Shown: positions 1-51,677 of the stretch, one piece after another
How the letters are laid out: each line of letters begins with the position of its first letter
Position numbering within the stretch: position 1 is the first letter of the stretch
Source: a virus
Length of the DNA stretch: 51,677 nt
IMG/VR virus record: IMGVR_UViG_3300036770_006530
Span: 1 to 51,677 of that record
Reading direction: 5' to 3' (one strand)
The notes under the pieces: generated by a model
Seen by the model: only the letters and a program-made list of their open reading frames with translations
The model's database searches: none
What the model was told of the DNA's origin: nothing
Made by a program: the position numbers and the translations under genes

Positions 1-127
1 CCGGTGGTGACATTGTTGACCTGCGCCGACAGGGCAGTGATGGCGCTGGCATTGGCGCTGTCACCACTTGCCCGTGCCGACGCCTCCGTGGCAATCGCGG
101 CATGGGCGGCGGGCAGACCGGTGGTGA
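1..127. repeat. Terminal overlap copy A (identical to 51551..51677)
   Basis: Compared base by base with the last 127 nt and found identical. The length is typical of an assembler k-mer overlap on a circular contig. Confidence 0.9.
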
Positions 128-600
128 CATTGTTGACCTGCGCCGACAGGGTGCTGATGGCGCTGGCATTGGCGCTGTCACCACTGGCTCTTGCCGACGC
201 CTCCGTGGCAATCGCGGCATGGGCGGCGGGCAGACCGGTGGTGATGTTATTGACCTGCGCCGACAGGGTGCTGATGGCACTGGCATTGGCGCTGTCACCA
301 CTGGCTCTTGCCGACGCCTCTGTCGTGATGGCGGCATGAGCGGCGGGCAGGCCGGTAGTGACATTATTGACCTGCGCCGATAGGGTAGTGATTGCGCTGG
401 CATTGGCACTATCGGCACTGGCCCGCGTCGACATCTCCGTCGTGATCGCTGCTTCGGCGCCACCAACCCTTGACACCAGCGTGGTGATTTCGCTGGCAAG
501 CGCTCCATCCGCATTGATCCGCGCGTTTTGTTCGTTCTGGATGGCCGCCACGGCACCGCTGGCCACAGCGGACACGGTGGTGATTTGACTGGCCAAGGCA
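1..600. repeat. Tandem 120-bp repeats (about 3 near-perfect units 1..360, then degenerating copies to about 600) inside the J-like gene
   Basis: Units 1..120, 121..240 and 241..360 differ at only a few positions. On the minus strand each unit encodes a 40-aa repeat, TTGLPAAHAAIATEASARASGDSANASAITALSAQVNNV. Confidence 0.9.
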
Positions 601-3278
601 CCGTCCGCCGTCTGGCGAGCGGAACTTTCCTGACTGATGGCCGTTCCCCGCGCCTGGGCTTCGGCGACCAGGGCATCGACCCGGGCTTGTGCCTCTGCCT
701 GAAGGCGAGCAGCGACGCTGCCCGCCACGATGGCCGGGGCGTCCACCAGATCGATGCGACCCGACAGTACCTCGGTCAACTGATCTGGCCCGATGATCCG
801 TTCCGCCAGATCGTCGGCGACGATGGACAGGGCCGTCACCTCCACCGCCGGCGTGAAGGTCAGGCTATCCTCGCCAAAGGCATCGGTCTGGGCCAGCTGC
901 ACCCACAGCTTGGTGCCGGCTGCAAAGGGCAGCACCTTGTCCGTGTCCGGCCCGCGATAGATCAGGTGGTCCGGATCGATGGGCACGGGCAACGCGTCCG
1001 ACGCATAGACCACAGCACCCCGCCAGTCATTATCCACGGTCGGGCGGTATGCCACCCGAATTCCCAGCGTCTCACCGCTGATCGCCACATTCTGCGGCAG
1101 ACCCGGCGCGGGGTTCGAGACAGTCAGGGAGGCGGTGCCCACCTCCCCCCCGACCTTGGGCGCCATCGAGACATCAAAGCGCAGGCGGCGGCGGGGGCCA
1201 CCATCCCGGACATTGGCGTCAAAGCTGTAAATGTATTCGCTCGCCAGCTGCGGCCCCTCCGTCCGCAGCACCCGCCCCGTGTCTGGATCGATCACGCGGA
1301 TCATATAGCCGGACAGGTACGGGTTGGCCGTCGCGGTCCCCGCCCCGAACGGTTCCTGACCAAAGGGCTGGGCCGTGTCCGGGAACACCCCATCCCAGAC
1401 CAGACGGACATCCTTGCCTTCGAATGTCGTGTCCAGACCCTGCCCGAACAGCTCCAACCGCACAACCCGCGCACCGGTGATGCCGCTGGTCACCTCCACC
1501 AGCTGCGCCGGCAACCAGGGGCTGGTGACACCCCGGACATTCTGGACAGCAGCGGACACTGCATAGGTCGCCCCGTCACGGACTTCGATCGTGGTCACAC
1601 TGGCGCCTGCCGGCAGGATGCGCACCTGCCATTCGGTGTCGGCCGCCAGACGCCAGCGCACCAGATAGTCGCGGGCATCCGCATCCGGAGAGGCACCGAC
1701 GGTCACCGCCAGGACCGGCGCCACGCTGCCATCGGCCAGGACGGCAGTCTGCGCCAGGGCCGTCAGGCTGGCGGGGGCGGCGACCACTGACGGATCGGGC
1801 AGATTGGTGCGGGGAGGAACGGGCAAGGCCTGTTCTTCTGCGGACGTCCAGGCATAGTCGGCCGCCACCTCCTCCCGCAGCAGCAGATCGATGCCGCCTT
1901 CTGATGCCAGCTCCCAGCTTTCGACCCGGAATGGCTTTTCGTCCCAGCCCATGGCCACCAAGGTCACCGGCACGACGTCACCCACCCGCAGGGTCATGCA
2001 GCGCCAGTTGCCCGGCCATTGCACACTGCCCCGGCGCGACCGGCGCAGGGCGATCTTAGCCAACCGTTGTGCCCGGGCAGGGTCGGTGACCGGCGGCAGC
2101 TCGATATCCATTTCCAACCGCTCGCCATCGGCGGCGATCAGCGCATCATCTTCTACGGTCGGAAAATCGGTCGCCACCCACCCCTGATCAGGGCTGATGA
2201 ACCGACCCTTCACGCAGTTCGCCAGATCCTGGCGGGGCGGGTCCATGTCGATGGTGGGTGCCCCGCGCAGATGATCGGCAGTCAGCACCAGGCCGCCGGG
2301 TGCGGGAGCCTGATAGGCGGCGGGGTAGAGACGCCACGCACCGCGCGTATAGGACAGGCTGGCCATGCCGGCACCCAGCATCTGTTCGACCGCGTCGCCG
2401 GGCGCGCCATCCAGCGACAGGGAGATATTGGCCGTGTAGCGGCGCTGGGTCGTGTCGCTGCCGGAAATGGAAATCGGCACCGGCTCATCACACAGGTTGG
2501 CGGCGGCCACGATGGCTGCATCATCAACCTCGTCATCATCGCTGGCATAGCCATAGTCGCCGCGCAGGAAGTCCCGCACGCACAGCGCGAAGTTATCGCT
2601 CCACGCTTTCTCGCCCGTGCGCGGGTCGTAGACTTTTTGGCCTTTCACCACGGCGGTGATGGGCGGCAGGCCGTCCGGCCAGGTATCCGGCCCCTTCTTC
2701 TTGTCCCACAGCATACGAACATAGAGCGCCGCGACACCTTCCAGCCGGTGGGAGGAGGTCCAACCAACACCGGCCGCCACCAGAGAGGCGGGAGCCTGTT
2801 GGCCGGCGGCACCGGTCAGTTTTTCGACATACAAGGCGTTCTGCAGGCGATGCCCCACTTGCGGCACATAGCCAGCCCCAGAGGGCACCAGCGGCACGAT
2901 TTCATCGCCGACATAAAGGTCACCGATCTCTTCGACCCCATCGGCATCAGTACGGGCAAGGGCCAGCACCTGGTGCAGGTAGCCGTTGGACAGCCCGCCG
3001 CCGGGGCCGGAGGCCGCGAAGACACGCAAGGATCGGACACGGGTCTGGCCATAGACGACGTTCTGCGGCTCCGTGCCGGACGCCAGCGAAATGTTGGAGG
3101 ATCTGTCCAGCCCCGAAAACCGGGGCGTCTTCATCAGGGTGCCCGACACAGCAGCAGACGCCGCCACCGCTGCTGCTGCCCAGTAGGCAGCATTCAAGCC
3201 ACCCGTGGCCCAGGTCACCGCGAAGGTAATGGCGATCTGGGGCAGCGCCCGGATGACCGATTTTGCGGCTTTTGCCAT
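1..3278 (-). CDS. Host-specificity / central tail fibre protein (lambda J-like), N-terminal 1092 codons; continues at 50479..51677 across the circular junction
   Basis: The minus-strand frame is open from the ATG at 3278 to the left edge. It is absent from the ORF track because it has no in-window stop. My translation starts MAKAAKSVIRALPQIAITF and continues through DFLRGDYGYASDDD, VESWELASEGGIDLLL and VRWRLAADTEWQV. 3278+1072 nt gives 1450 codons in frame with the right-end piece. Confidence 0.8.
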   Translation of the reverse strand, partial: MAKAAKSVIRALPQIAITFAVTWATGGLNAAYWAAAAVAASAAVSGTLMKTPRFSGLDRSSNISLASGTEPQNVVYGQTRVRSLRVFAASGPGGGLSNGYLHQVLALARTDADGVEEIGDLYVGDEIVPLVPSGAGYVPQVGHRLQNALYVEKLTGAAGQQAPASLVAAGVGWTSSHRLEGVAALYVRMLWDKKKGPDTWPDGLPPITAVVKGQKVYDPRTGEKAWSDNFALCVRDFLRGDYGYASDDDEVDDAAIVAAANLCDEPVPISISGSDTTQRRYTANISLSLDGAPGDAVEQMLGAGMASLSYTRGAWRLYPAAYQAPAPGGLVLTADHLRGAPTIDMDPPRQDLANCVKGRFISPDQGWVATDFPTVEDDALIAADGERLEMDIELPPVTDPARAQRLAKIALRRSRRGSVQWPGNWRCMTLRVGDVVPVTLVAMGWDEKPFRVESWELASEGGIDLLLREEVAADYAWTSAEEQALPVPPRTNLPDPSVVAAPASLTALAQTAVLADGSVAPVLAVTVGASPDADARDYLVRWRLAADTEWQVRILPAGASVTTIEVRDGATYAVSAAVQNVRGVTSPWLPAQLVEVTSGITGARVVRLELFGQGLDTTFEGKDVRLVWDGVFPDTAQPFGQEPFGAGTATANPYLSGYMIRVIDPDTGRVLRTEGPQLASEYIYSFDANVRDGGPRRRLRFDVSMAPKVGGEVGTASLTVSNPAPGLPQNVAISGETLGIRVAYRPTVDNDWRGAVVYASDALPVPIDPDHLIYRGPDTDKVLPFAAGTKLWVQLAQTDAFGEDSLTFTPAVEVTALSIVADDLAERIIGPDQLTEVLSGRIDLVDAPAIVAGSVAARLQAEAQARVDALVAEAQARGTAISQESSARQTADGALASQITTVSAVASGAVAAIQNEQNARINADGALASEITTLVSRVGGAEAAITTEMSTRASADSANASAITTLSAQVNNVTTGLPAAHAAITTEASARASGDSANASAISTLSAQVNNITTGLPAAHAAIATEASARASGDSANASAISTLSAQVNNVTTGLPAAHAAIATEASARASGDSANASAITALSAQVNNVTT

Positions 3279-3284
3279 GTAACC

Positions 3285-3692
3285 TCACACGCGCCAAGCG
3301 CGAACCGCGTTCGCCATCGGCACCGTGACCAGCCCTTCAGGGGCCATGGCCACAGCATCGATGCCGATGCAAATACCAAGGGCCGGACCGTCATCGCCCG
3401 GCAGTTCCACGATGTCGCCCCGCTGTGCCAGCAAGGGCGCGAGCGGGGGGCCGACCCGTTTGGTCACCAGCTCTGTCAGGCAGGCACAGCCGGCCCGGCG
3501 CACGACGGCGACAGACCCCGCCACGCTGCGGTAGCGTCCCCGCAGATCCGGCACCGGGTCCGTACCTGTGGCTTCCAGGATCCAGTCCGCCGCCAGCATC
3601 CCGCAATCGGCCGTGCCAAACGCGAAGGGCACGGCCTTGCGGGCGGCTACGAAGGCGGCCAGACGTTCCGGCCAATCAGCATGCCGCGCCAT
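3285..3692 (-). CDS. Tail-associated protein, possible NlpC/P60-like (gpK position)
   Basis: ATG at 3692 overlaps the upstream stop (TGATG). It sits between distal tail genes and the J-like gene. Contains FGTADCGMLAADWI with a candidate catalytic Cys. Confidence 0.5.
   Translation of the reverse strand: MARHADWPERLAAFVAARKAVPFAFGTADCGMLAADWILEATGTDPVPDLRGRYRSVAGSVAVVRRAGCACLTELVTKRVGPPLAPLLAQRGDIVELPGDDGPALGICIGIDAVAMAPEGLVTVPMANAVRAWRV
3300..3314. repeat. Dispersed palindrome GCGAAC-N3-GTTCGC, copy 1 (spacer CGC)
   Basis: Exact arms read in the sequence. About 21 nt upstream of the J-like ATG, inside the 3' end of 3285..3692. Confidence 0.9.
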
Positions 3693-4849: not shown

Positions 4850-6943
4850 TCACATCCCGATATTGCGCAGCTTGCCTGTGCGCTTGGCTTCAGCCAATGC
4901 GGCCACGGTACGCTGACCAAAGGTTGAGCGCATTTCGTCCACCATGGCCCGCAGCTGTGCGATTTCCGCCGCCGTGCCGCCGGAGACGGAGAGGTTAAAT
5001 TCCTGTTTCAACGCCACGCCCGTGCCACCGCCCCCGGTACTTTCCGGGGCGATGACACCGGGGCGGATGGGCATGAAGAAACCGGGCGCAGAGCTATCCT
5101 CCGCGCGGCGTTCATTGACCATGTACAGCGTGTCGGGAAACACCTGCCCGCCGGCGGCACGCGGGCCACCGGCGCGGGTCAGGCCACCGAAATCGCGGTT
5201 GCCGAAATAGCCGGCCCCCGACGTGTTGCCCTCCATGACCTTACCGGGGGTCTGACCTGCCCCCATACTGCCGACCCAGGCATTGATGCCCTGGGCGATC
5301 CAGGACCCGATGCCGCCGCCGGTGGATTGCACCATGTACATGCGGATCAGTTCGTTTGCGACATCCATGATGATGGCGCGGACGCTGTCGCCCCAGGACT
5401 GAAACCCCGCCGCCGACCGCTGCAGGTTCTCCTGCAAACTACGGTCGATGGCGTCGCCGACCCGCGTGATGTTCTGCACCTGGGCGCGGGTGTTCGCCTC
5501 GATGATGCGCTTCACATCCGCCGCCTGATCCTCCAGCATCTTGCGCTGCGGCTCGCGCAGCTTGTTCGCATACTCCATCAGCTCACGGGCTGTCTGATCC
5601 AGGCTCTCGCGGGTCGCGCGTTCCTTGTCCCATTTGTCGCTTTCGAACTCGAACGACTGGACAGCCCGGCGGAACTGCGCCTTGGCATCCTTTACAGGGT
5701 CGGCATTGGGGTCGACGTAATCGTCGGCTGGTGTGCCGCCCCATGGCTTAACGACTGAATTGCCGGTGCCCTCCGGTGGTCCGCGCAGCAGGTCAAGGCG
5801 CGCTTGGTATTGGGCGCGCAGTCGCTCAAGGTCGCGGATTTCCTCTTCCAGTGATTGCCCAAACAGGGATCTCGTCCATGCGCTCAGTTGCGCGTCACTG
5901 CCGGCGAGGCCGCCCTGCGCTTGCTTGGCTGCCCAGTCACGCGCCTTAGCGTTCAGAACGCCCAACCGTTCGTCGATCTGCGCCAGCTCGTACAGAACGC
6001 GCTGTTGCCCGATCTCACCGAAGCCCTTGTAACCATCGGCGGCAACGCGGATCCATTTGGCGAAATCTGCCGCCAGCTGCGTCGCCGCAACAATGGAGGG
6101 CGCCAGATCAACAAAGGCCTGATTGAGGTTCAGATCGATGACACGGGACAGGCTGTCCAGTTCCGCCTTGGTCGCGGTGGCCCGGCGCAGAACGCTTTCC
6201 TCAACCACCACGCCCAAGCTCTGCGCCTCTGCCCGAAAGCGGGCAAGGCCGTCAGCCCCCTGTTTCAGCAGTGCGACCAGTTTTTCGCCGCCCTGGTCGC
6301 CGAAAATCTTGTCCGCGATATAGGCTTGTTCCGCTGACGTCTTGACCTGTGAAATACGGCTGGCCACCAGCTGAAACAGGCCTGGCAGATCTTTCAGCTT
6401 CGCCTTCACTTCGTCCTGACTAATGCCCAGCTTCTTGAAGCCCTCCGCCCCCTCACCCGTGCCATCAGCCGCTTCCGCTGCGCGTATCCCCAGCTCCTTC
6501 AACGCTTCATCGGCACTTTCGGCACCGATGCCGACCCGATCCGCAGCAAAGCGCAGTTCCTGCAGGGCGTTGGTCGTAACGCCCAGACGATCAGCGGTTT
6601 TTGCGACATCTGCAAAGCTGTCCACGGCCTGCCGCGCGCGAGCGATTGCGACACCAATACCGATGCTAACCGCCCCTATGCCCGCCGCCGCGACCATCCC
6701 CGCCGGACCAATGGATGAAAGCACATTGCCGACCGGGCCCGCCCTGCCAGCCAGACCTGACAGGCCGGACTGCACTTCCTGGCTTGCCGCATTGACCGCC
6801 TTCAGGCCCCCAGAGGCGGGCTTGGCACCCTCTTCGATGCGCCGGAGGGCCGCTTGGCCATCCTTGCCGAGAGCTTCCAGGGCACGTTTCACCGTGTCCT
6901 GATCCTTGACGGACAAGCGAATGGAGAGGTTGCGTTCGGTCAT
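4850..6943 (-). CDS. Tail tape measure protein
   Basis: 697 aa with long Ala/Gly/Leu-rich helical segments, hydrophobic GIGAVSIGIGVAIA stretches and a Gly-rich C-terminus. It lies downstream of the chaperone pair. Confidence 0.85.
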   Translation of the reverse strand: MTERNLSIRLSVKDQDTVKRALEALGKDGQAALRRIEEGAKPASGGLKAVNAASQEVQSGLSGLAGRAGPVGNVLSSIGPAGMVAAAGIGAVSIGIGVAIARARQAVDSFADVAKTADRLGVTTNALQELRFAADRVGIGAESADEALKELGIRAAEAADGTGEGAEGFKKLGISQDEVKAKLKDLPGLFQLVASRISQVKTSAEQAYIADKIFGDQGGEKLVALLKQGADGLARFRAEAQSLGVVVEESVLRRATATKAELDSLSRVIDLNLNQAFVDLAPSIVAATQLAADFAKWIRVAADGYKGFGEIGQQRVLYELAQIDERLGVLNAKARDWAAKQAQGGLAGSDAQLSAWTRSLFGQSLEEEIRDLERLRAQYQARLDLLRGPPEGTGNSVVKPWGGTPADDYVDPNADPVKDAKAQFRRAVQSFEFESDKWDKERATRESLDQTARELMEYANKLREPQRKMLEDQAADVKRIIEANTRAQVQNITRVGDAIDRSLQENLQRSAAGFQSWGDSVRAIIMDVANELIRMYMVQSTGGGIGSWIAQGINAWVGSMGAGQTPGKVMEGNTSGAGYFGNRDFGGLTRAGGPRAAGGQVFPDTLYMVNERRAEDSSAPGFFMPIRPGVIAPESTGGGGTGVALKQEFNLSVSGGTAAEIAQLRAMVDEMRSTFGQRTVAALAEAKRTGKLRNIGM

Positions 6944-25055: not shown

Positions 25056-25122
25056 ACTTGGCGCAACTATGCCGGCGCATAGGCCCCGGCCATCCACGTG
25101 CCCACTGACCTTTTTCATATGC

Positions 25123-25178
25123 TTATACACACGATTGCGCAACACCACTTGACAGTGTTGGGCAATCGTGTGTATAAA
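25123..25178 (+). promoter_or_regulatory. hicAB promoter (TTGACA 25149..25154, 18 nt, TATAAA 25173..25178) embedded in a 22-bp inverted repeat operator (25123..25144 / 25156..25177)
   Basis: The arms TTATACACACGATTGCGCAACA and TGTTGGGCAATCGTGTGTATAA match 21 of 22 as reverse complements. Confidence 0.6.
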
Positions 25179-25208
25179 CAATTCAGCGAAACGAAGGAGG
25201 GAGCGCGG

Positions 25209-25397
25209 ATGAAGGTAAGAGAAGTGATCGCCCGGTTGACAGCGGACGGGTGGTACGAAGTGCGGCAGAACGGGAGCCATAAACAGTTCAGGCACCCCAC
25301 AAAACCCGGCCTCGTAACCGTCCCTGTTCATGGCGGCGACATATCGATCCAGGTGATCGTCTCTATCGAAAAACAGTCTGGTGTCCGCCTCCGATAG
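25209..25397 (+). CDS. hicA: HicA mRNA-interferase toxin
   Basis: 62 aa, MKVREVIARLTADGWYEVRQNGSHKQFRHPTKPGLVTVPVH. AAGGAGG upstream of the ATG at 25209. Confidence 0.85.
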   Translation: MKVREVIARLTADGWYEVRQNGSHKQFRHPTKPGLVTVPVHGGDISIQVIVSIEKQSGVRLR

Positions 25398-25457
25398 GGG
25401 GCGGACCACCAACTGAACATCCTCTCCCCCGGCACTGCCAGAATGGAGCGCCCAGAA

Positions 25458-25883
25458 ATGCTTAAGATCGCCTACCCGGCAATCTTCATCGCCCCGGATG
25501 CTAACTGCTCTTCCTACAGCGTCCTGTTCCCCGACCTGCCCGGATGCATCTCGGCAGGGAACAGCCTCGAACACGCCTTCCTGATGGCGGGTGAAGCCCT
25601 TGAACTCCACCTGGACGGCATGGCGCAGGACGATGAAAAGCGGCCTGCCCCGTCCAGCCTGGAACAGGCGCGCCGCCTGTTCATCACGGACTATGAAGGC
25701 AGCAACGATCTCATCGCCGCTGTGCAGCTGGTGCCGGCCAAGGTGCCCGGCCGCACCACCCGCATCAATGTCTCGTTGGACCAGAACCTGGTCGAACAGA
25801 TCGATGCGATCACCGACAACCGTTCTGCCTTCCTGACCATCGCCGCCCGGGCCGAACTGGCCCGACGCCGCACCGCCGCCTGA
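25458..25883 (+). CDS. hicB: HicB antitoxin with a C-terminal RHH-like DNA-binding tail
   Basis: MLKIAYPAIFIAPDANCSSYSVLFPDLPGCISAGNSLEHA. The C-terminal RINVSLDQNLVEQIDAI is RHH-like. An alternative start exists at 25443. Confidence 0.8.
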   Translation: MLKIAYPAIFIAPDANCSSYSVLFPDLPGCISAGNSLEHAFLMAGEALELHLDGMAQDDEKRPAPSSLEQARRLFITDYEGSNDLIAAVQLVPAKVPGRTTRINVSLDQNLVEQIDAITDNRSAFLTIAARAELARRRTAA

Positions 25884-31695: not shown

Positions 31696-34296
31696 ATGGC
31701 CAACGCAGCCGTTAAACAGGACCCTGCCGCCCTTGTGGCCGAAGCCATTACCGATCTCCAGCGTGTTGCCGATGCCGCCGCCACCCTGACGGAACCGCGC
31801 GCTGGTGAGACGAAGGGCGACTATGTCCGCCGCATGCGCCAGGAACGGGGCATGTCGGCCAAACAGTTCGCGACCGCCGCCAGCATCACGGCCAAACAGG
31901 CAGGCCAGGCCGAAAGCGACCCTGACAAGTTGGGCAACCTGAATGACTGGCTTCGAATTGAACGCACCCTGGACATCCCGACCTACACCCTGTCCCATTG
32001 GGGTCAGGCGAAACCCGACAAGCCCGACAACGCCTTCGGTCGCGCCAAAGACAAGCCCCATGAAGGCGAAACGCGTGGCGACTATCTCCAGCGCATCCTG
32101 ACCCTGCGTGAAATGGATACCGAACAGCTGGCGGATATGCTGGTCCTGGATCCGGACGAGGTGCGCCAGGCGGTGGAAGAGCCGTGGCGGCACCTCTATG
32201 GCCAGGATGTGTTGTGGGAGGCGATTGCCACCGGCCTGAACCTGCCGGTGGATTACATCCTGTCCACACCGGTTCATGCCCCGGTGGCGGACCTCTCCCC
32301 CACGATGGATCGCGACGCGTCCGCCACGCCGGCCGACGCGGCACCGATGCCAACGGCAGAGAATGGCGCCGTCATTGCCTTGGCTGTCGATCAGATCAAG
32401 CCGCAGAACTATCGCCGGACCTTTTCAACGGCCTCGCTGACGGAGCTGGCGCAAAGTCTTGCCGCACAGGGGCAGCTGCAACCCGTTCTGGTGCGCCCTG
32501 CCCCCGGCCATTGGGCGTTGATCGCCGGCGAACGCCGGTGGCGCGCGGCGCAGCTGGGGATCGAACAGGGCATCCTGCCCGCCACCTTCACCCTGAATGC
32601 CACCGTCCGCACCGACATCGATGCCGACGCGCATGTCTTGGCCAGCTTGGTCGAAAACCTTCAGCGCGAAGACGTACCCCCGCTGGAGGAGGCCGAAGCC
32701 CTGGCCCTGGCCCGCAAGCGGTGGAGCGCGACAGAGATCGCCAAGGCCATCAGCAAGACGCCGCGCTTCATCCAGCAGCGGCTGGCCCTGGTGGAGAAAC
32801 TGTCCGGCCCGACCAAACAGGCTTTGGCCGATGGCGACATCACGGTAACCTTTGCCCGCCTCCTGGCTCGCGTAGGCCCTGCGACACAGGCCGAATTGCT
32901 GGTGGAAATCCGCCGCGGATATTTCGGTACGGCAAAGCAGCTGGAGGAACGCATCCAGCGCCTGACCTTCGATCCCGATAAGGCCATCTTCAGTCCGCTG
33001 CTCTATAACGGACCAACCATCACCGACGAAGATAACAAGCTCTGGTACACCGACCTTGGGCTGGTGAAGAAACTTCAACTCGAAGCGGCCAAAGACAAGG
33101 CGGCCGAGCTCCGGCAACAGGGCTATGGCTATGTAGAGGTCATTGAGGGCGGGCACTTTAGCGCCGTCGATGGCGGTTACTACATGCAAGAGCGGAACCT
33201 GACCATTCGCAAGGGCGACCGCCCCTTGCCCGCCGGCGCCCACCGCGCCGCCATCATCGCCATCAAGAATGACCTGTCGGTGGAAATCCACGCGAACCTG
33301 GTTCGCACGGACACGAAGCCCACCTCGCCCAAGGCCAAGGCCGCCGCCGCTGGCACCATCGTTGACCCGTCACAGTTGGTGGGCGAAGGACAGAGGCTCT
33401 ACGCGGAAAAGGCCCGCACCCGCGCCTTGCAGGCCGCGATCATGCGCGATGAACAGGCCCAGATGGCCGTGGTGGCCATCGGCATGTTGCAGAAGGCCAG
33501 CTGGGGTCAGCCCATCAGCTTTCGCGATGAACATTGGCCTCCACACCGCCTGACGGTTCTGCCGGCTTTAAGCGAACAGTTGCAGGAGGTGTTGGACACC
33601 TATCCCGGACTGTTGGCGGACCTGACAAAGGAACCGCGCGGCGGCGTTGGCGACCGCCTGGATAAGGCTGAACACCCGCAGGTGGTCCTGTGGCACACAC
33701 TGATGACCATGGAGTATGAGGACCTGGTCGCGCTGATCGGGCTGTTGGCCGCCGCCCGCGTCATGGCCGGCAATGGCGGTTTTGAGTTGGGCGAACAGGA
33801 CCTCTGCATCGCCATGGCCGACAGCCTGAACGTCCAGATGGACGTCAAATGGCAGATCGATGCCGAATACCTGTCGACCCTGAAGAAGCCGCAGCTGATC
33901 GCGCTGGCCCATGCCATCGGCATGTTCACCATGGCCCGGCAGATGGCAGACGGCGCCAAGAAGGAACACACGCAGCGCGGGGCCTTCACCGGCCTGAAGA
34001 TGGCCGCAATGGCCGCCGCCATCCTGGATTATGTGCAGACCCACAATATCCGCTATGTCCCGCCGGAGCTGCGCTTCCTGCGCAAGGATGAAGCGGTAGA
34101 GCGTACCCGCGCCGAACTCGCCGATGGCGCTCCATGCAGCTGGATTGAGAATGGCCCCGCCGATCCCGCCCCACCCCATCCGGCCTGGGCACGCCAGCCG
34201 ACGGCGCCGCCGCCACTGACCCCGACAGAACCCGACGATGACGCCGGCGACGACGATGGCGACGTCGAAGATCTCGACACCGACGAAGCCGCCTGA
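31696..34296 (+). CDS. Large ParB/Srx N-terminal-domain protein (866 aa) with duplicated HTH-like N-terminal segments and a long uncharacterised C-terminal region
   Basis: AAGGAGG SD. ParB box LIAGERRWRAAQL and LVENLQREDV. Confidence 0.75.
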   Translation: MANAAVKQDPAALVAEAITDLQRVADAAATLTEPRAGETKGDYVRRMRQERGMSAKQFATAASITAKQAGQAESDPDKLGNLNDWLRIERTLDIPTYTLSHWGQAKPDKPDNAFGRAKDKPHEGETRGDYLQRILTLREMDTEQLADMLVLDPDEVRQAVEEPWRHLYGQDVLWEAIATGLNLPVDYILSTPVHAPVADLSPTMDRDASATPADAAPMPTAENGAVIALAVDQIKPQNYRRTFSTASLTELAQSLAAQGQLQPVLVRPAPGHWALIAGERRWRAAQLGIEQGILPATFTLNATVRTDIDADAHVLASLVENLQREDVPPLEEAEALALARKRWSATEIAKAISKTPRFIQQRLALVEKLSGPTKQALADGDITVTFARLLARVGPATQAELLVEIRRGYFGTAKQLEERIQRLTFDPDKAIFSPLLYNGPTITDEDNKLWYTDLGLVKKLQLEAAKDKAAELRQQGYGYVEVIEGGHFSAVDGGYYMQERNLTIRKGDRPLPAGAHRAAIIAIKNDLSVEIHANLVRTDTKPTSPKAKAAAAGTIVDPSQLVGEGQRLYAEKARTRALQAAIMRDEQAQMAVVAIGMLQKASWGQPISFRDEHWPPHRLTVLPALSEQLQEVLDTYPGLLADLTKEPRGGVGDRLDKAEHPQVVLWHTLMTMEYEDLVALIGLLAAARVMAGNGGFELGEQDLCIAMADSLNVQMDVKWQIDAEYLSTLKKPQLIALAHAIGMFTMARQMADGAKKEHTQRGAFTGLKMAAMAAAILDYVQTHNIRYVPPELRFLRKDEAVERTRAELADGAPCSWIENGPADPAPPHPAWARQPTAPPPLTPTEPDDDAGDDDGDVEDLDTDEAA
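33292..33306. repeat. Dispersed palindrome copy 10 (spacer CTG)
   Basis: Inside the ParB-like CDS. Confidence 0.9.
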
Positions 34297-39265: not shown

Positions 39266-39580
39266 TCAGCCCTTCAGGCCGAGGACTTGCTCCCGGTACA
39301 GCTTCCACGCAGCCTCGATGACGACACCCTGCGTGGTACCTAGGCGCGCCGCCTCTGCAGAGATCTCCGCCGACACATCTGGCAGCACCTTTGCGTGCAC
39401 CTGCCCCGTGCGCGGGCTCGCGGCCCGCCCCCGCTTGCCCGCCGGCACGCGGGCGACGAAGCCGCGCGCCTCCCCCACAGCGTCCAGCTCGCGTGCGACA
39501 GTGATCGGAATCTCGGGCCGCTCCACCTTCTTCAAGCCGCCCAGGTTCACGCCAAAGCCCTTCTTTACCCCTTCGGTCAT
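39266..39580 (-). CDS. Small centromere-binding partner of ParA (ParG/RHH-like)
   Basis: 104 aa with an ATGA overlap to parA. The C-terminal VLPDVSAEISAEAARLGTTQGVVIEAAWKLY is RHH-like. Confidence 0.55.
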   Translation of the reverse strand: MTEGVKKGFGVNLGGLKKVERPEIPITVARELDAVGEARGFVARVPAGKRGRAASPRTGQVHAKVLPDVSAEISAEAARLGTTQGVVIEAAWKLYREQVLGLKG

Positions 39581-40251
39581 CCCGCTCCCCCCGTCAGCCG
39601 GTTCACGATCTGCTGGGCAAACGCCTGAGCGTTTTCAATTGCCCGGTCCATATTACCACCCTGCCCTTCTGGCATGGTCCGCAGGTCACCGCCAAAGTTA
39701 AACAGTGCGGAGAAGCCAGCACGCTGCGCCAGCGACGGTTGGATAACATCCACACCTTGTTCGATCAGGCTGGCCTCGATCCCGCGATGTTCCTTGGATT
39801 GAATGGCGCTGGTCATTGTGAAGACGACGGCATGACGGATGGCCCGCCCCAACGTCTCCTCCTCCTCCTTGATCAACTCCAGCGCACGGCTGCCCACGGT
39901 GGCATCCAGCGTGGTGGCGCGCATGGGGATTATGACCAGATCGGCCCGCGCAATGGCCCGCGTCATGAGCCGGGAGGCTACCCCTTCCAGATCGACGATG
40001 ACGATCTTGCCGTCGCCATCAGCGTCCTTGAGTGCTTGGATGACATCATTCTCGGTCATGCCTTTGCTTGACACGCACCGGATACGAGGCGGCAAGGGGG
40101 CCTGGGAGGCCCAGAGAATGATGGACTGGTTGGGATCGCAATCAACCAGGGTCACATCCGCGCCGGCATGCGCCAGCTCGGTGGCCAGAACGACTGCCGA
40201 TGTGGACTTTCCAGCACCCCCTTTGGGGCTGGCGAACACGATGGTGGGCAT
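39577..40251 (-). CDS. parA: ParA/Soj-family partition ATPase (type Ib size)
   Basis: MPTIVFASPKGGAGKSTSAVVLA is a deviant Walker A. 224 aa. Confidence 0.85.
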   Translation of the reverse strand: MPTIVFASPKGGAGKSTSAVVLATELAHAGADVTLVDCDPNQSIILWASQAPLPPRIRCVSSKGMTENDVIQALKDADGDGKIVIVDLEGVASRLMTRAIARADLVIIPMRATTLDATVGSRALELIKEEEETLGRAIRHAVVFTMTSAIQSKEHRGIEASLIEQGVDVIQPSLAQRAGFSALFNFGGDLRTMPEGQGGNMDRAIENAQAFAQQIVNRLTGGAG

Positions 40252-40261
40252 GGAAGCACAT

Positions 40262-40442
40262 TTACCCGGTAATTTCGATTACCGGATAATTCATCATACC
40301 GGGTTAAGCTGTCAACCCGGTATGATGAATTACCGGATAATTTCCCTAATCCGGTTTGTTGACATATCGGGTAATAACTCTTATCCGGTACGTATGTTTA
40401 TCCGGTTATCGTACTTACCGGATAAACATACGTACCGGATAA
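40262..40442. repeat. Partition/operator region: at least 6 TACCGGATAA motifs, a 19-bp inverted repeat (40287..40305 / 40314..40332) and a perfect 25-bp inverted repeat (40381..40405 / 40418..40442)
   Basis: Arms verified as exact reverse complements. On the minus strand, TTGACA lies in the spacer of the first inverted repeat, upstream of parA. Confidence 0.65.
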
Positions 40443-40570
40443 AAACGGAGACACCAGCATGATGCCCCTCTCATAAACGCTCGATTCTCTCCACCAACAA
40501 GTGTGCGCGATCCCCCGAATCGAAGGCCGATCAATCTGCCGACAACCTAGCCCGACACAAAATCAATGGG

Positions 40571-40689
40571 TTCGGGGTATCGCGCACGGCGGCGCTTGAC
40601 TTCGGGGTATCGCGCACGTTTCATCTTCGGGGTATCGCGCACACTAGGCCTCGGGGTATCGCGCACACATCATTCGGGGGATCGCGCAC
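40571..40689 (+). repeat. Five direct iterons TCGGGGTATCGCGCAC upstream of repA (40571, 40601, 40626, 40650, 40673)
   Basis: Read directly from the sequence. The last iteron abuts the repA ATG. Confidence 0.9.
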
Positions 40690-41616
40690 ATGGGCGCCAT
40701 TAGCGAACAAGTTGACCTGTTCCTCGACAGCCTGATCAATGCGCCTGTCAAGGATGATCAGGCCCTGATGCAGTTTCCATTCTTCTCGCTGCAAAAGCAG
40801 CCGCGCATGGAACCAATGGTTTTCGAGCGCGACGGCATCGTTGTCAGGATCACCCCAGGCCCTAAGGGTATCGCCACCATCTGGGACAAGGACGTCCTGA
40901 TGTACCTGGCCAGCAGCATCAATGACCGCATCGAACGCAACCTCCCCGTTGACCGAACCGTCAGGTTCCACGCCTACGACCTTCTGCGGGTCACGCGTCG
41001 CGCCGGCAACCGCGCCTCCAAGAAGGATTATGAGGCACTGAAGGATGCACTGTTCCGGCTGCGCTCCACCACTATCGAAACGACCATCAAGTCGGCTGAT
41101 AGCCGCGAAGAACGTGGCTTCGGATGGATCGATAACTGGCGGATCGTGCGGCGCGACGCCAAGGCCGGGGAGGAGGAGGGGGCAATGGCAGCGGTTGAGG
41201 TCACCCTTAACGATTGGATGTTCCGTGCAATCGTCAGGGACCGCCGCGTCCTCACCATCAACCCCAACTACTTCAGCCTGACAAAGGGCCTGGAACGCCG
41301 CCTCTATGAATTGGCACGGAAGCATTGCGGGCACCAACGGCGGTGGGACATCTCGCTGGAAAAGCTGATTGAGAAGTGCGGTTCGACCCGCGAGTTACGG
41401 TTCTTCAAGCGCGACCTGAAGACCATCATCGAGATGGACACCTTGCCGGACTACTCGATCTCCATGTCGTTCGACCCGGCAGAGCGCAAAGAGGTTGAGG
41501 CAGCTGGCATGGATGGGCGGAGATGGTCCTCCAATGAACGGATCATTGTGTCGTTCCACCGCCGGGGCAAGGTCGGCACCGACTACATTGACCACGAGGC
41601 TGTGGACAGAATGTGA
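40690..41616 (+). CDS. repA: Plasmid replication initiator, RPA (replication initiator protein A) family
   Basis: 308 aa. LMQFPFFSLQKQPR is an N-terminal motif typical of alphaproteobacterial RPA-type initiators. Flanked by iterons. Confidence 0.8.
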   Translation: MGAISEQVDLFLDSLINAPVKDDQALMQFPFFSLQKQPRMEPMVFERDGIVVRITPGPKGIATIWDKDVLMYLASSINDRIERNLPVDRTVRFHAYDLLRVTRRAGNRASKKDYEALKDALFRLRSTTIETTIKSADSREERGFGWIDNWRIVRRDAKAGEEEGAMAAVEVTLNDWMFRAIVRDRRVLTINPNYFSLTKGLERRLYELARKHCGHQRRWDISLEKLIEKCGSTRELRFFKRDLKTIIEMDTLPDYSISMSFDPAERKEVEAAGMDGRRWSSNERIIVSFHRRGKVGTDYIDHEAVDRM

Positions 41617-41997: not shown

Positions 41998-42083
41998 TTG
42001 GTGCAAAAGTTAGGAGTTTCGCACCAAACGCAAGCGACTGCCACAGAAGGGCTTTTTTGGTGCAAAAGTCCGGTGCATATTGG
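41998..42083 (+). promoter_or_regulatory. Candidate res/crossover sites: TTGGTGCAAAAGT direct repeat (41998, 42057); the first copy forms an imperfect inverted repeat TGGTGCAAAA-N8-TTTCGCACCA
   Basis: Read directly from the sequence, immediately upstream of the serine recombinase gene. Confidence 0.4.
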
Positions 42084-42088
42084 CCCGC

Positions 42089-42637
42089 ATGATTTACGGC
42101 TATGCACGCGTATCGACCGACGGACAAAGTGTGGAAGCGCAGGTGGAGGCGCTGACCGCAGCAGGTGCCGCCAAGGTCTACCGGGAGGTGGCCAGCGGGG
42201 CGAAAAGCGACCGCGCCCAGCTCCGCCGCGTCATCGATGCATTGGACCCCGACGATGTTCTGCTGGTGACGCGCTTGGATCGACTGGCCCGCACCACCCG
42301 CGATCTGTTGAACATCCTGGCAGAGGTGGCGGGGAAGGGGGCAGGCTTCCGGTCGCTGGCGGATGCATGGGCCGACACCACCACACCACATGGCCGCCTG
42401 ATGCTGACCTTCCTGGGCGGCCTGGCGGAGTTTGAACGCGAGCTGATCACCGCCCGCACCAGCGAGGGCAGGGCGCGCGCGAAGGCGAGAGGCGTTCACA
42501 TGGGGCGTAAGCCTAAGCTGACCCCGCATCAGATGCGGGAAGCACTCGCGCGCCGGCAGGCAGGGGAGGGGGTCAGGGAGATCGCTCTGTCTTACAATGT
42601 CAGCCACAGCACGATATCCAGGCTGAGACGCGAGTGA
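42089..42637 (+). CDS. Serine recombinase (resolvase/invertase family)
   Basis: MIYGYARVSTDGQSVEAQ catalytic N-terminus and a C-terminal HTH (IALSYNVSHSTISRL). Confidence 0.85.
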   Translation: MIYGYARVSTDGQSVEAQVEALTAAGAAKVYREVASGAKSDRAQLRRVIDALDPDDVLLVTRLDRLARTTRDLLNILAEVAGKGAGFRSLADAWADTTTPHGRLMLTFLGGLAEFERELITARTSEGRARAKARGVHMGRKPKLTPHQMREALARRQAGEGVREIALSYNVSHSTISRLRRE

Positions 42638-43206: not shown

Positions 43207-43240
43207 ACGTGCTTATGCGCGTTTTCGCGCATAAGCACGT
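43207..43240. terminator. Perfect 15-bp-stem hairpin ACGTGCTTATGCGCG-TTTT-CGCGCATAAGCACGT downstream of the SRAP operon
   Basis: Arms verified. A second palindrome, CTGACCAAGTTGGTCAG, lies at 43249..43265. Confidence 0.5.
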
Positions 43241-43291: not shown

Positions 43292-43900
43292 CTAGACGTC
43301 GATGCATTCAACGTCTTCATCATCAACCGGCGTAGCGATAGCGGTCACGGCAGAGGCCGGCGCCGTCAACCAGTCCACCTGCGCCTGCCGGCCGATCAAG
43401 ATCACGGGCATCGCCTTTGGATGATACGGACGCACCACGCTGTTGGGCTCACAGGTCAGGAACGCGAACAGCTGATGCGGGCCCGGTATCGGTGCCTTCT
43501 TCGGCCCGCGCTCGCCATCCCATGAACGCCAGATGCCGGCGAACGCGGCGGGGCGGTCGTCCGATATGTGGAACCACACTTCACGCCTGGGCGCGGCACC
43601 AGGCGCGTACTCCGCGAAGGCGGAGAAGGGGACAAGGCACCGGTTCGCAGGCCCCAGGAAGGGCCGCCAGAAGGGGCTGGAGAGGTTGCGGACATTGGTC
43701 ACCAGGTCTGTTCGGCCCGGCGCTGGAGGGAAGCCCCAGCGCATTTCCGACACCGCCAACCGACCACCCTCGCCCCGCCGGATCACCAGCCCAGGGCGGT
43801 CGGGAAACACGTCGATCCGTGTCTCGCTGAACTCCTCAAAGCCATAAACTTCGAGTGCGAGGTTGGCCTTGGAGATCGGGCCACGGTAGTGATTACACAT
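43292..43900 (-). CDS. SOS-response-associated peptidase (SRAP/YedK family)
   Basis: The MCNHYRG N-terminus with catalytic Cys2 is diagnostic. 202 aa. Confidence 0.85.
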   Translation of the reverse strand: MCNHYRGPISKANLALEVYGFEEFSETRIDVFPDRPGLVIRRGEGGRLAVSEMRWGFPPAPGRTDLVTNVRNLSSPFWRPFLGPANRCLVPFSAFAEYAPGAAPRREVWFHISDDRPAAFAGIWRSWDGERGPKKAPIPGPHQLFAFLTCEPNSVVRPYHPKAMPVILIGRQAQVDWLTAPASAVTAIATPVDDEDVECIDV

Positions 43901-43902
43901 CG

Positions 43903-44148
43903 TCAGGTTCCCGTTCGCCGATCACTGTCCTTTGACATCGCCGCGAAGGCGGCCACTGCTGCATCCTGATCGCTCTGTCGAACAATGCGCGCCCGGTTCA
44001 TGACGCGATACAGATAAGTGGGGTTGGACGCGGCACAGGCCAGATACGCACCGAACACGACCGTGAACGTGGCATGCTCAACAACCGTTTCCGTTCCTCC
44101 TGCATGGTCACGTTCGACACGCCAGGGCATACAAAAAATCTCCGACAT
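43903..44148 (-). CDS. Small protein co-transcribed with SRAP; candidate SOS-induced effector/antirepressor
   Basis: 81 aa. Its stop is 2 nt before the SRAP ATG, and a LexA box lies about 20 nt upstream. An alternative start exists at 44130. Confidence 0.5.
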   Translation of the reverse strand: MSEIFCMPWRVERDHAGGTETVVEHATFTVVFGAYLACAASNPTYLYRVMNRARIVRQSDQDAAVAAFAAMSKDSDRRTGT

Positions 44149-44166
44149 AAGCGCCCCCAGTGGTTA

Positions 44167-44181
44167 GAACAAAATGAGAAC
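44167..44181. promoter_or_regulatory. Alphaproteobacterial-type LexA box GAAC-N7-GAAC, overlapping the palindrome GAGAACATGTTCTC (44176..44189)
   Basis: GAACAAAATGAGAAC read directly. It is the only such site I found in the window. Confidence 0.65.
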
Positions 44182-44224
44182 ATGTTCTCCGCAGGCAGCC
44201 ATGTCTAGTCCCACCCGTGAACGC

Positions 44225-44255
44225 AAAAAGGCCCGCCGGATGGTGCCGGCGGGCC
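44225..44255 (-). terminator. Intrinsic terminator ending the late/lysis transcript
   Basis: GGCCCGCCGG/CCGGCGGGCC 10-bp stem, followed on the minus strand by TTTTTGCG. Confidence 0.75.
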
Positions 44256-44556
44256 TGGATCGGGGTAGATCACCGCGTATTGCGACCGCAATACGGAGCG
44301 CCATTCGAGAGAATACGAGCGTCGCCAACACCTTAGCCGCAGCGGATAGCTGCATCAGGTGTGTTCAAACCCCACGCAATGCGCAATTTTCTTGCGACGT
44401 ATGGCAGGTGCATTTTCGTGCGTTAGCCGCGCCTCATTTTGCCCGTGTCGCCCCTGCCGGCACCCTCGCCGGCAGGGGTGAAATCGACCCCGAAAATGGC
44501 CGTCGCGATAGCGACGTATATACGCGCCCTTGGAACTTACGTTCGGGTCCGGGGTT

Positions 44557-44571
44557 GCGAACGCGGTTCGC
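44557..44571. repeat. Dispersed palindrome copy 13 (spacer GCG)
   Basis: 1 nt beyond the o-spanin stop. Confidence 0.9.
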
Positions 44572-44572
44572 A

Positions 44573-50478: not shown

Positions 50479-51677
50479 TTACTCCGTCAGCAAAGCCGTG
50501 ACGATGAAGCGGACGCCATCGGCGTTGATGGACTGGCCACCTTGCCGATTGAGCACCAGGCTGTAGGTGGAGACGGCACCGGGCGGGCTGGTGTCGATGT
50601 AGCTGGTGGCCAAGCTGCCTTGCGCCACACCGATATCGTCCAGATAGTCCAGGCCGCTTTTCGACACGACGCTGTTCCACCGGGCGATCTCTCCCCCGTC
50701 GCGGCGCAGCGATATGTCGATATTGGCATTGGGCACGCCGGAATTGACGATCACCGTTGCCACCCCGGTGACCTCCAACCGCACCTTGCGGCCATTGTGC
50801 GAGATGGTGAGCGACCCGACCTGTGTGTCGCCTTCCGGCAGCCCCCCAGGCGGGGATGACCAGCTGGAGGTCTGCGCGGAATTGGTGATGCTTCCCGGCA
50901 CGATTTGGGCCGTGCCCACCACCTGCACGCCCAGGCCATTGGCACCCAGGATCAAGTCACCATTGGCTTTCCAGACGTTGATCCCAGCATCGGCCCCGTT
51001 GCGGTACATCTCCACCCGGCGGCGGGTGCCATCAAAGAAGAACAGCGTCTGACGGTTGGTGTTGCCGTCATCCGCTGCCCGAAGGTACATCCCGGCGGCA
51101 CCCAGATAGGGAGCGCCCATGCGGATCTCACCCGCCGTGATCACGCCACCCGTGAACTGCGAGGCGGACACCGATCCGGCATAAAGTGCGCCGTTGATCA
51201 CGACCGTCGGCAGACCCGTGACAGGATCTGTACCGGCAGCAAAGATATACCGGTTGCCTGTCTCACCCGGCAGGGACACCGAGAATTTATCCGCCACCAC
51301 GGCGAAGTGCGAGACCGTCGCGCCGTTGATGGGTGCCGATGCCAGACCGTAACCGGCGACCTTGCCATTGACGTCAATCTTCACCGTGTATTGGGCCGAC
51401 AGGCCGTCAATGCTGCTCTGCTGCGTGGAAATGGCCGAACTGTTGTTGCCAACCGTCGTGCTTAACGTGCTGACGGAAGATGCCACCGCACCGACGGCAG
51501 TGGCTCGTGCCGACGCCTCCGTGGCAATCGCGGCATGGGCGGCGGGCAGACCGGTGGTGACATTGTTGACCTGCGCCGACAGGGCAGTGATGGCGCTGGC
51601 ATTGGCGCTGTCACCACTTGCCCGTGCCGACGCCTCCGTGGCAATCGCGGCATGGGCGGCGGGCAGACCGGTGGTGA
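50479..51677 (-). CDS. Host-specificity J-like protein, C-terminal part (continuation of 1..3278 across the junction)
   Basis: The frame is open from the right edge to the stop at 50479. It includes the 40-aa repeats and the C-terminal ...SAISTQQSSIDGLSAQYTVKIDVNGKVAGYGLA... region typical of J-type tip proteins. Confidence 0.8.
   Translation of the reverse strand, partial: TTGLPAAHAAIATEASARASGDSANASAITALSAQVNNVTTGLPAAHAAIATEASARATAVGAVASSVSTLSTTVGNNSSAISTQQSSIDGLSAQYTVKIDVNGKVAGYGLASAPINGATVSHFAVVADKFSVSLPGETGNRYIFAAGTDPVTGLPTVVINGALYAGSVSASQFTGGVITAGEIRMGAPYLGAAGMYLRAADDGNTNRQTLFFFDGTRRRVEMYRNGADAGINVWKANGDLILGANGLGVQVVGTAQIVPGSITNSAQTSSWSSPPGGLPEGDTQVGSLTISHNGRKVRLEVTGVATVIVNSGVPNANIDISLRRDGGEIARWNSVVSKSGLDYLDDIGVAQGSLATSYIDTSPPGAVSTYSLVLNRQGGQSINADGVRFIVTALLTE
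51495..51677. repeat. Continuation of the 120-bp tandem array at the right edge
   Basis: 51498..51550 matches the second half of a unit. 51551..51677 equals unit 1. Confidence 0.85.
51551..51677. repeat. Terminal overlap copy B (identical to 1..127)
   Basis: Base-by-base identity. Confidence 0.9.

Follow-up and report, generated by a model that had tools for sequence, protein, structure and literature searches.

The DNA considered here is IMG/VR virus record IMGVR_UViG_3300036770_006530, analysed over its full 51,677 nt (the window), and our subject is a two-gene operon on its minus strand. A gene for an orphan soluble protein of 81 amino acids (aa), at 43903..44148, is followed by a gene for a 202-aa protein of the SRAP (YedK/HMCES) family, at 43292..43900. 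Ahead of both, on the same strand, lie an intrinsic terminator, a putative promoter and an operator of the alphaproteobacterial LexA type (44167..44181), which reads GTTCTCATTTTGTTC on the coding strand and GAACAAAATGAGAAC on the plus strand. The original prediction had placed a LexA box between a strong terminator (here mapped to 44256..44229, minus strand) and an 81-codon open reading frame (ORF) coupled to SRAP, and that arrangement is confirmed. Comparison with related loci indicates that the operon is very probably under LexA control; what the small protein does is a more difficult question, to which a LexA-controlled antirepressor is the leading answer.

In Caulobacter (PMC9578287) and other Alphaproteobacteria the SOS box has been published as GTTC-N7-GTTC. 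This motif occurs exactly once in the window, as GAAC-N7-GAAC on the plus strand at 44167..44181, just as had been claimed. By itself this count is no more than chance and proves nothing, as 0.90 exact matches are expected in the window and 58 of 100 shuffles contained at least one; the significance of the box comes from its position and its conservation. It lies 18 nt 5′ of the small-gene ATG and overlaps a conserved −10-like hexamer, CATGTT. Six loci with the small gene were compared: the window, the nearly identical L003, and L065, L002, L004 and L001. GTTC-N7-GTTC is present in all six, about 20 nt 5′ of the start codon, and the five loci other than the window, which together amount to 22.5 kb, hold exactly five exact boxes, one apiece and all at the homologous position. 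The eight specified bases of the box are invariant in the six sequences; the spacer and most flanking columns vary. The 7-nt spacers are in fact all different (TCATTTT, TTTATTT, TTTTTTT, TTATTCC, CATTTAT and CGTTTAT) and are A+T-rich despite a genome of about 64% G+C. Across the alignment the invariant blocks are T.GACA, then CA.GTTC, GTTCT and ATG.

The putative promoter hexamers were assigned by conservation. The −35-like hexamer (44202..44207, minus strand) is TAGACA in the window and TGGACA in the five relatives, with GACA invariant and the preceding T conserved. CATGTT (44179..44184, minus strand) agrees with TATAAT in the A at position 2 and the T at position 6, and its distance from the −35-like element is fixed at 17 nt, or 18 in L001. 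The promoter-proximal GTTC half-site overlaps CATGTT, and the second half-site lies downstream of it, so promoter function cannot account for the conservation of the latter. This bears on the possibility that the box is a chance match, that LexA is not the regulator and that the conserved bases are merely promoter elements. One exact match in 51.7 kb is indeed the chance expectation, and the overlap of the first half-site with the putative −10 means that the promoter may partly explain its conservation. However, the distal half-site, GTTC with the T that follows, is 3′ of the −10 and is invariant in six loci at an exact 7-nt spacing across a variable spacer. Furthermore, the same motif heads operons in three unrelated SRAP-carrying alphaproteobacterial phages and a plasmid-borne imuAB-dnaE2 cassette. 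We find the chance match scarcely credible. A real LexA operator is very likely, because operator and overlapping promoter are conserved in all six loci.

Two further sequence features around the box do not appear to contribute to it. The original prediction had extended the box into a palindrome, and the 14-nt palindrome GAGAACATGTTCTC is present at 44176..44189; as a functional operator it was rejected, since L003 has GAGCATGTTCTT and L002 has GCGCATGTTCTT at this place, and the extension is probably incidental. Sites with a single mismatch to the LexA motif show a marginal excess in the window (38 against 27 expected). These were also rejected as additional LexA sites: another palindrome, GCGAAC-N3-GTTCGC, supplies at least five of the hits, and its family, taken up below with the phage regulators, appears to explain much of the excess.

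The terminator (44229..44256, minus strand) consists of an 11-bp stem with 10 G-C pairs and a 6-nt loop, followed by TTTTTGCGTTC with its T run. The hairpin is kept in L002, L003, L004 and L065; it ends the lysis cassette that lies upstream and sets an insulating boundary before the module formed by the small gene and SRAP. A weak Shine-Dalgarno-like GGGGG (44154..44158, minus strand) stands 5 nt before the ATG, and L002 has GGAGG at the same place. Two ORFs of 63 aa and 222 aa that overlap the promoter region were taken to be spurious, as both cross the terminator and the box.

The assignment of the second gene to SRAP is secure. The protein starts MCNHY, as had been reported, and matches Pfam PF02586 with E=1.6e-19 and 70.8 bits against a cut-off of 27.1, its residues 1-202 covering positions 1-207 of the 214 in the profile. 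The closest solved structure is the Agrobacterium pAT protein 2AEG, and a profile built from ten SRAP relatives matches 2AEG, 1ZN6, 2F20 and human HMCES (6OE7). M1, Cys2, N3, N69, E97 and H160 are invariant in the 10-sequence alignment. By motif (TNxR, FxE and HxKAMP), without structural superposition, N69, E97 and H160 correspond to Asn75, Glu105 and His160 of YedK, which together with Cys2 form a thiazolidine crosslink to abasic sites in single-stranded DNA (ssDNA) (PMC9436759). The SRAP of the window is accordingly predicted to crosslink abasic sites in ssDNA.

The two genes form an operon in which SRAP is translationally coupled to the small gene: only 2 nt separate the TGA stop of the one from the ATG of the other, and in L004 the two genes overlap. 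SRAP follows the small gene in four of the six loci (the window, L003, L004 and L065). In L002 just the first nine SRAP codons are left after the small gene (MCNHYKAAV), and L001 has no SRAP, the box and small gene there being divergent from a gene for a secreted protein and adjoining parA. In both of these loci the small gene is intact, under purifying selection and equipped with its LexA promoter, and we conclude from the comparison that LexA promoter and small gene travel as a unit. L065 presents the converse case, as a frameshifting deletion of about 50 nt has broken the small gene and left SRAP intact. The frameshifted gene (L065 ~600..650) gives a 57-aa product, the sequence past the deletion still matches the family, and the locus holds either a recent pseudogene or an assembly error. 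The separability of the two genes in L001, L002 and L065 argues against an obligate pair with SRAP, of the toxin-antitoxin or the chaperone kind, and this possibility was rejected, each gene being found without the other. As a separate observation on L004, a stretch directly 3′ of its SRAP gene (~2810..2880) resembles the 3′ part of a tRNA (GGTTCGAATCC...CCACC), and ARAGORN found no complete tRNA there; it may be the remnant of an attachment site, in which case L004 would be integrated rather than a plasmid.

Comparison also establishes that the small ORF is a real gene. Its product is 58-75% identical to its homologues in L001, L002, L004 and L065 and identical to that in L003. Pairwise ratios of nonsynonymous to synonymous substitution (dN/dS) are 0.09-0.24, with synonymous sites saturated, and the conserved N-terminus supports the ATG at 44148. 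A longer gene call of 99 aa (P0001) in L003 was rejected as read-through upstream of this conserved ATG. The family is nevertheless a very small one. A word-indexed search of 5.8 billion proteins returned three relatives, and an exhaustive profile search with a hidden Markov model over 1.84 billion representatives added just one further fragment. A scan of GTDB genomes gave a single small-gene locus, L004, in a metagenome-assembled genome (MAG) of Niveispirillum. No relative was found in a scan of IMG/VR, by tblastn against deposited phages and plasmids, or with peptide patterns in JGI metagenomes, where a back-translated DNA pattern for FGAYLACA picked out 55 stretches, none of them a relative by tblastn.

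Known families offer little guidance to function. Four members of the 81-aa family matched no Pfam family even at E values up to 10. There was no NCBIfam or PADLOC match to the protein, and the SRAP operon was likewise unmatched in these; a profile search with the family against PDB sequences gave noise only. The PHROGs collection yielded a marginal match (E 0.0065) to a family of unknown function. An AlphaFold 2 (AF2) model from a 3-sequence alignment was unusable, with a mean predicted local distance difference test score (pLDDT) of 45. The family has isoelectric points of 5.9-6.7, a negative grand average of hydropathy (GRAVY) and no transmembrane segment, the maximum 19-residue Kyte-Doolittle mean being 1.0-1.5. 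A membrane toxin or division inhibitor, or an SOS membrane peptide of the TisB or SidA type, was rejected for want of a transmembrane segment, and membership of the DinI family was rejected because there is no match to PF06183.

Some features of the flanks deserve mention. Between the spanin stop and the terminator, some 320 nt (44257..44572, minus strand) hold a strong hairpin, CCCCTGCCGGC...GCCGGCAGGGG, and no convincing ORF. This stretch is found in L003 and L065 and not in L002 and L004, where a conserved GCGTATATACGTCGC element almost directly abuts the terminator. Rfam gave no match for this stretch or elsewhere in the window; the stretch may represent an insertion or a small RNA. A relative of the spanin in IMG/VR, L083, is too distant and has no module downstream. 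At the other end, a perfect 15-bp hairpin (43207..43240, strand not assigned) lies 52 nt past the SRAP stop. It has no T run and is absent from the terminator scan list, and we suggest with low confidence that it possibly marks the end of the operon, shared with a convergent 62-codon ORF.

The element that carries this operon is most readily understood as a phage-plasmid. The window starts and ends with the same 127 nt (1..127 and 51551..51677), indicating a circular assembly of about 51.55 kb; the junction falls within a minus-strand ORF of about 1100 codons that probably encodes a tail fibre. Phage genes include terminase, portal, major head protein, tape measure and tail fibres, with a lysis cassette of an M15 endolysin and an Rz1-like spanin, and by terminase the nearest deposited phage is Sinorhizobium phi2LM21. 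Alongside them are plasmid-type genes for ParA, RepA (RPA family), a large ParB-like protein (ParB_N/HTH_ParB), HicA/HicB and a DNA invertase (39577..41616, 31696..34296, 25098..25883 and 42080..42637). Neither Pfam scans of the ORFs nor tblastn with XerC found an integrase in the window. Plasmid genes in a complete circular phage genome with no integrase lead us to this reading, in which the prophage would be maintained as a plasmid. As to the host, probably an alphaproteobacterium, the nearest RepA proteins come from plasmids of Magnetospirillum and Acetobacteraceae, and one relative of the locus, L004, lies in the Niveispirillum MAG.

An immunity region at 28.5-30.1 kb, about 14 kb from the box, encodes three helix-turn-helix (HTH) regulators of 96 aa (Cro/YdaS-like), 118 aa (XRE) and 125 aa (XRE), which consist of HTH domains only. 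For the 118-aa regulator the best NCBIfam similarities, below threshold, are to DicA and RstR. The claim that none of the three has an S24 self-cleaving domain proved correct: Pfam scans found no S24 domain in them or in the other ORFs scanned, and tblastn with LexA, lambda CI and UmuD found no S24-like stretch in the window. The palindrome GCGAAC-N3-GTTCGC mentioned above occurs in 14 copies of 15 nt, 13 of them perfect (at 3300, 6961, 11356, 16752, 19780, 20963, 25041, 26775, 30354, 33292, 38568, 41955, 44557 and 47898), and 10 of the 14 lie between gene calls. A looser pattern gives 27 strand-hits against 0.9 expected, a number reached by 0 of 100 shuffles. One copy sits in the divergent region beside the gene for a 125-aa-type HTH regulator in the window (30354) and in the relatives L071 (11496), L075 (7462) and L076 (7923); a single copy occurs in L001, and unrelated phages lack the palindrome. 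GCGAAC-N3-GTTCGC probably serves a conserved phage regulator as its operator, at sites dispersed through the genome, an arrangement that recalls the C1 operators of P1.

Taking these data together, we think it rather probable, on balance, that the locus is an SOS-inducible accessory operon of a temperate phage-plasmid, with a small protein for which antirepressor is the likeliest single role. In the lysogen, host LexA would occupy the GTTC-N7-GTTC operator, which overlaps the −10 of a sigma-70-type promoter just past the terminator of the lysis cassette, and hold the operon off. DNA damage would then bring about RecA-stimulated self-cleavage of LexA and open the promoter; both LexA binding and induction by damage are inferred here from the operator and its conservation. 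A single mRNA would yield two proteins, SRAP and the 81-aa soluble protein. After removal of Met1, Cys2 of SRAP would link covalently, as a thiazolidine, to abasic sites in ssDNA and shield them during replication. The 81-aa protein would act independently of SRAP and relay the SOS signal to the HTH regulators of the phage, none of which is self-cleaving.

An antirepressor under LexA control, which the original prediction had put forward, is the likeliest single role for the 81-aa protein and yet more apt to be wrong than right; part of the probability goes to the two other roles weighed below and the remainder to something else. In its favour, the complete circular genome has no S24 domain and the box is its sole exact LexA site. 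The small gene stands under a LexA operator outside the immunity region, and gene and LexA promoter have stayed together in L001, which lacks SRAP, and in L002, where nine codons of SRAP remain. The distribution of the possible targets gives mixed evidence. The 118-aa regulator has one homologue family in the database, P0009, at 63% identity, and homologues of this type occur in L071, a 33-kb relative with the same immunity region, and in the short contig L072. L072 comes from the same sample as L065, the locus with small gene and SRAP, which is consistent with the small gene and the 118-aa regulator travelling together.

Several observations weigh against this interpretation. No homologue of the 118-aa (CI-like) regulator or of the 257-aa immunity protein was found on the 49,424-nt contig of L001 (SRR31327219_50). 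L075 and L076 have the same immunity layout, with the 257-aa protein and 125-aa regulators 38-39% identical to that of the window but other CI/Cro genes, and no small-gene homologue is on record for their contigs. These co-occurrence data argue against the 118-aa protein as a universal target, and the 125-aa type remains a candidate. Nothing in the sequence of the 81-aa protein resembles Tum, DinI, Ant or an antirepressor family of PHROGs, which weighs little because the known antirepressors are mutually unrelated. In phi2LM21 an S24 CI coexists with a LexA-boxed SRAP operon, so such operons also occur where no antirepressor is needed. The close coupling of the small gene to SRAP could instead point to a joint function in DNA damage, and in L065 it is the small gene that is broken and SRAP that is intact. 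Two further points bear on LexA control itself: the promoter hexamers match the E. coli consensus poorly, a scan of E. coli type having missed the −35-like element, and the specificity of the host LexA is presumed from the probable class of the host, the Alphaproteobacteria.

If the operon is LexA-controlled, two other roles for the small protein have to be weighed. It might be pure damage-tolerance cargo (a moron), the 81-aa protein belonging to the SRAP pathway and standing outside the lysis-lysogeny switch. Its task might be to recruit SRAP, to regulate it or to aid its release from DNA, by analogy with the small zinc-ribbon proteins encoded just 5′ of SRAP in other alphaproteobacterial elements; zinc-ribbon partners of SRAP were noted by Aravind et al. 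(PMC3765255). The 2-nt gap between small-gene stop and SRAP start, the overlap in L004, and the presence of SRAP after the small gene in four loci with a remnant in a fifth would all fit such a partnership, as would the small genes found directly 5′ of SRAP in phi2LM21 (p59), a S. fredii plasmid, Rivra and Pyei1; and the S24 CI of phi2LM21 makes its LexA-SRAP operon unnecessary for induction. However, the pair is separable, with the small gene kept without SRAP in L001 and L002 and SRAP kept with a broken small gene in L065, and the 81-aa protein, which is no zinc ribbon, bears no relation to those SRAP partners. We regard this role as unlikely. Alternatively, the small protein could be directed at the SOS response or cell cycle of the host, by DinI-like modulation of RecA or LexA or by a block to division or growth. 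DinI-like genes are frequent in LexA-controlled loci of prophages (PMC3121763), the size and solubility of the 81-aa protein fit, and the small gene can change its surroundings and take its LexA promoter along, as L001 illustrates. Against this, there is no match to Pfam DinI or any other family at E values up to 10, no membrane segment of the kind found in SidA, TisB or YneA-type peptides, and no antitoxin-like partner, and we judge a host target to be distinctly improbable.

The antirepressor reading can be taken one step further, to a model that we offer as doubtful. The 81-aa orphan would found a new family of LexA-controlled antirepressors in alphaproteobacterial phage-plasmids, inactivating after DNA damage a small HTH master repressor, for which the best candidate is the conserved 125-aa regulator with GCGAAC-N3-GTTCGC as its probable operator. 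SRAP would protect the ssDNA of the damaged genome as it replicates, and ‘induce and protect’ would come as one package from a single SOS promoter.

The ways in which temperate phages of Alphaproteobacteria detect DNA damage have been little studied, those of phage-plasmids least of all. The locus described here offers a LexA-controlled promoter that is clean, conserved and the only one of its kind, within a complete phage-plasmid lacking a self-cleaving repressor. With one such promoter and no repressor of that type, there is one obvious candidate for the link from SOS to induction. Should the small protein prove to be no antirepressor, what remains is an ordinary SOS-inducible accessory operon. 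The unannotated LexA boxes that we find ahead of SRAP in several alphaproteobacterial phages lend direct regulatory support to the name ‘SOS response-associated’ in this class.

The locus belongs with the known LexA-controlled accessory and antirepressor modules of prophages and with SOS-associated SRAP. SRAP was named for its association with the SOS response, and its presence in temperate phages has been noted (Aravind et al. 2013, PMC3765255). The closest parallels in organisation are the LexA-boxed SRAP operons of Sinorhizobium phi2LM21 (p63-p58), Agrobacterium Rivra (gp33-gp30) and Paracoccus vB_PyeM_Pyei1 (gp75), in each of which a single exact LexA box with an A+T-rich spacer, set over a TTGAC-type promoter, heads an operon ending in SRAP. 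We found no annotation or discussion of these boxes. As in the window, the SRAP operon lies in an accessory arm near the lysis genes, and Pyei1 has the same order of terminator, box, small ORF and SRAP. In contrast, the small genes upstream are unrelated to that for the 81-aa protein and several encode zinc ribbons, and phi2LM21 integrates and has an S24 CI. Pyei1 (L069) contains an unannotated CxxC...CxxC zinc-ribbon ORF of about 104 codons (~2180..2495) between its LexA box (2145) and SRAP, just past the terminator; it is of the same type as p59 of phi2LM21, the S. fredii plasmid protein and the C-terminus of Rivra gp31, all directly 5′ of SRAP. phi2LM21 (L070) has two intergenic exact LexA boxes with A+T-rich spacers (5815..5829 and 41322..41336), of which one heads the SRAP operon and the other stands 38 nt 5′ of the small gene p15, beside the S24 CI gene; two more exact matches fall within genes, have G+C-rich spacers and look fortuitous. 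Outside phages, the pRsa plasmid of Fuscovulum blasticum has a LexA box 39 nt 5′ of the SRAP start in an operon SRAP-imuA-imuB-dnaE2. The window differs from this imuA-imuB-dnaE2 cassette in having no translesion polymerase genes, in the orphan small protein that accompanies SRAP and in its carrier, a phage-plasmid.

For the proposed antirepressor the comparison is with phages of enterobacteria. Tum of coliphage 186 and AntC of N15 are LexA-repressed and inactivate a phage repressor that cannot be cleaved (as cited in PMC3121763). N15 is a plasmid prophage, like the element in the window, although it is linear and enterobacterial; there is no homology to Tum or AntC, and the corresponding role in the window is inferred only. 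The Gifsy phages have short, uncleaved repressors and keep their antirepressor genes away from the immunity region, in operons under LexA that also encode DinI (Lemire et al. 2011, PMC3121763); the Gifsy-1, -2 and -3 loci comprise a dinI homologue, the antirepressor gene gfoA, gftA or gfhA, and irsA (PMC3121763). The window differs in host class and in the LexA motif, which is a direct repeat, in having SRAP rather than DinI or IrsA as the accessory gene, and in that its 81-aa protein, a proposed antirepressor only, does not resemble GfoA, GftA or DinI in sequence. The likeness is one of design. Both have short HTH repressors without a cleavage domain and an SOS locus outside the immunity region, and in both a terminator-like palindrome is followed by a LexA-boxed promoter and then by an operon that joins a small effector to an SOS-related accessory gene.

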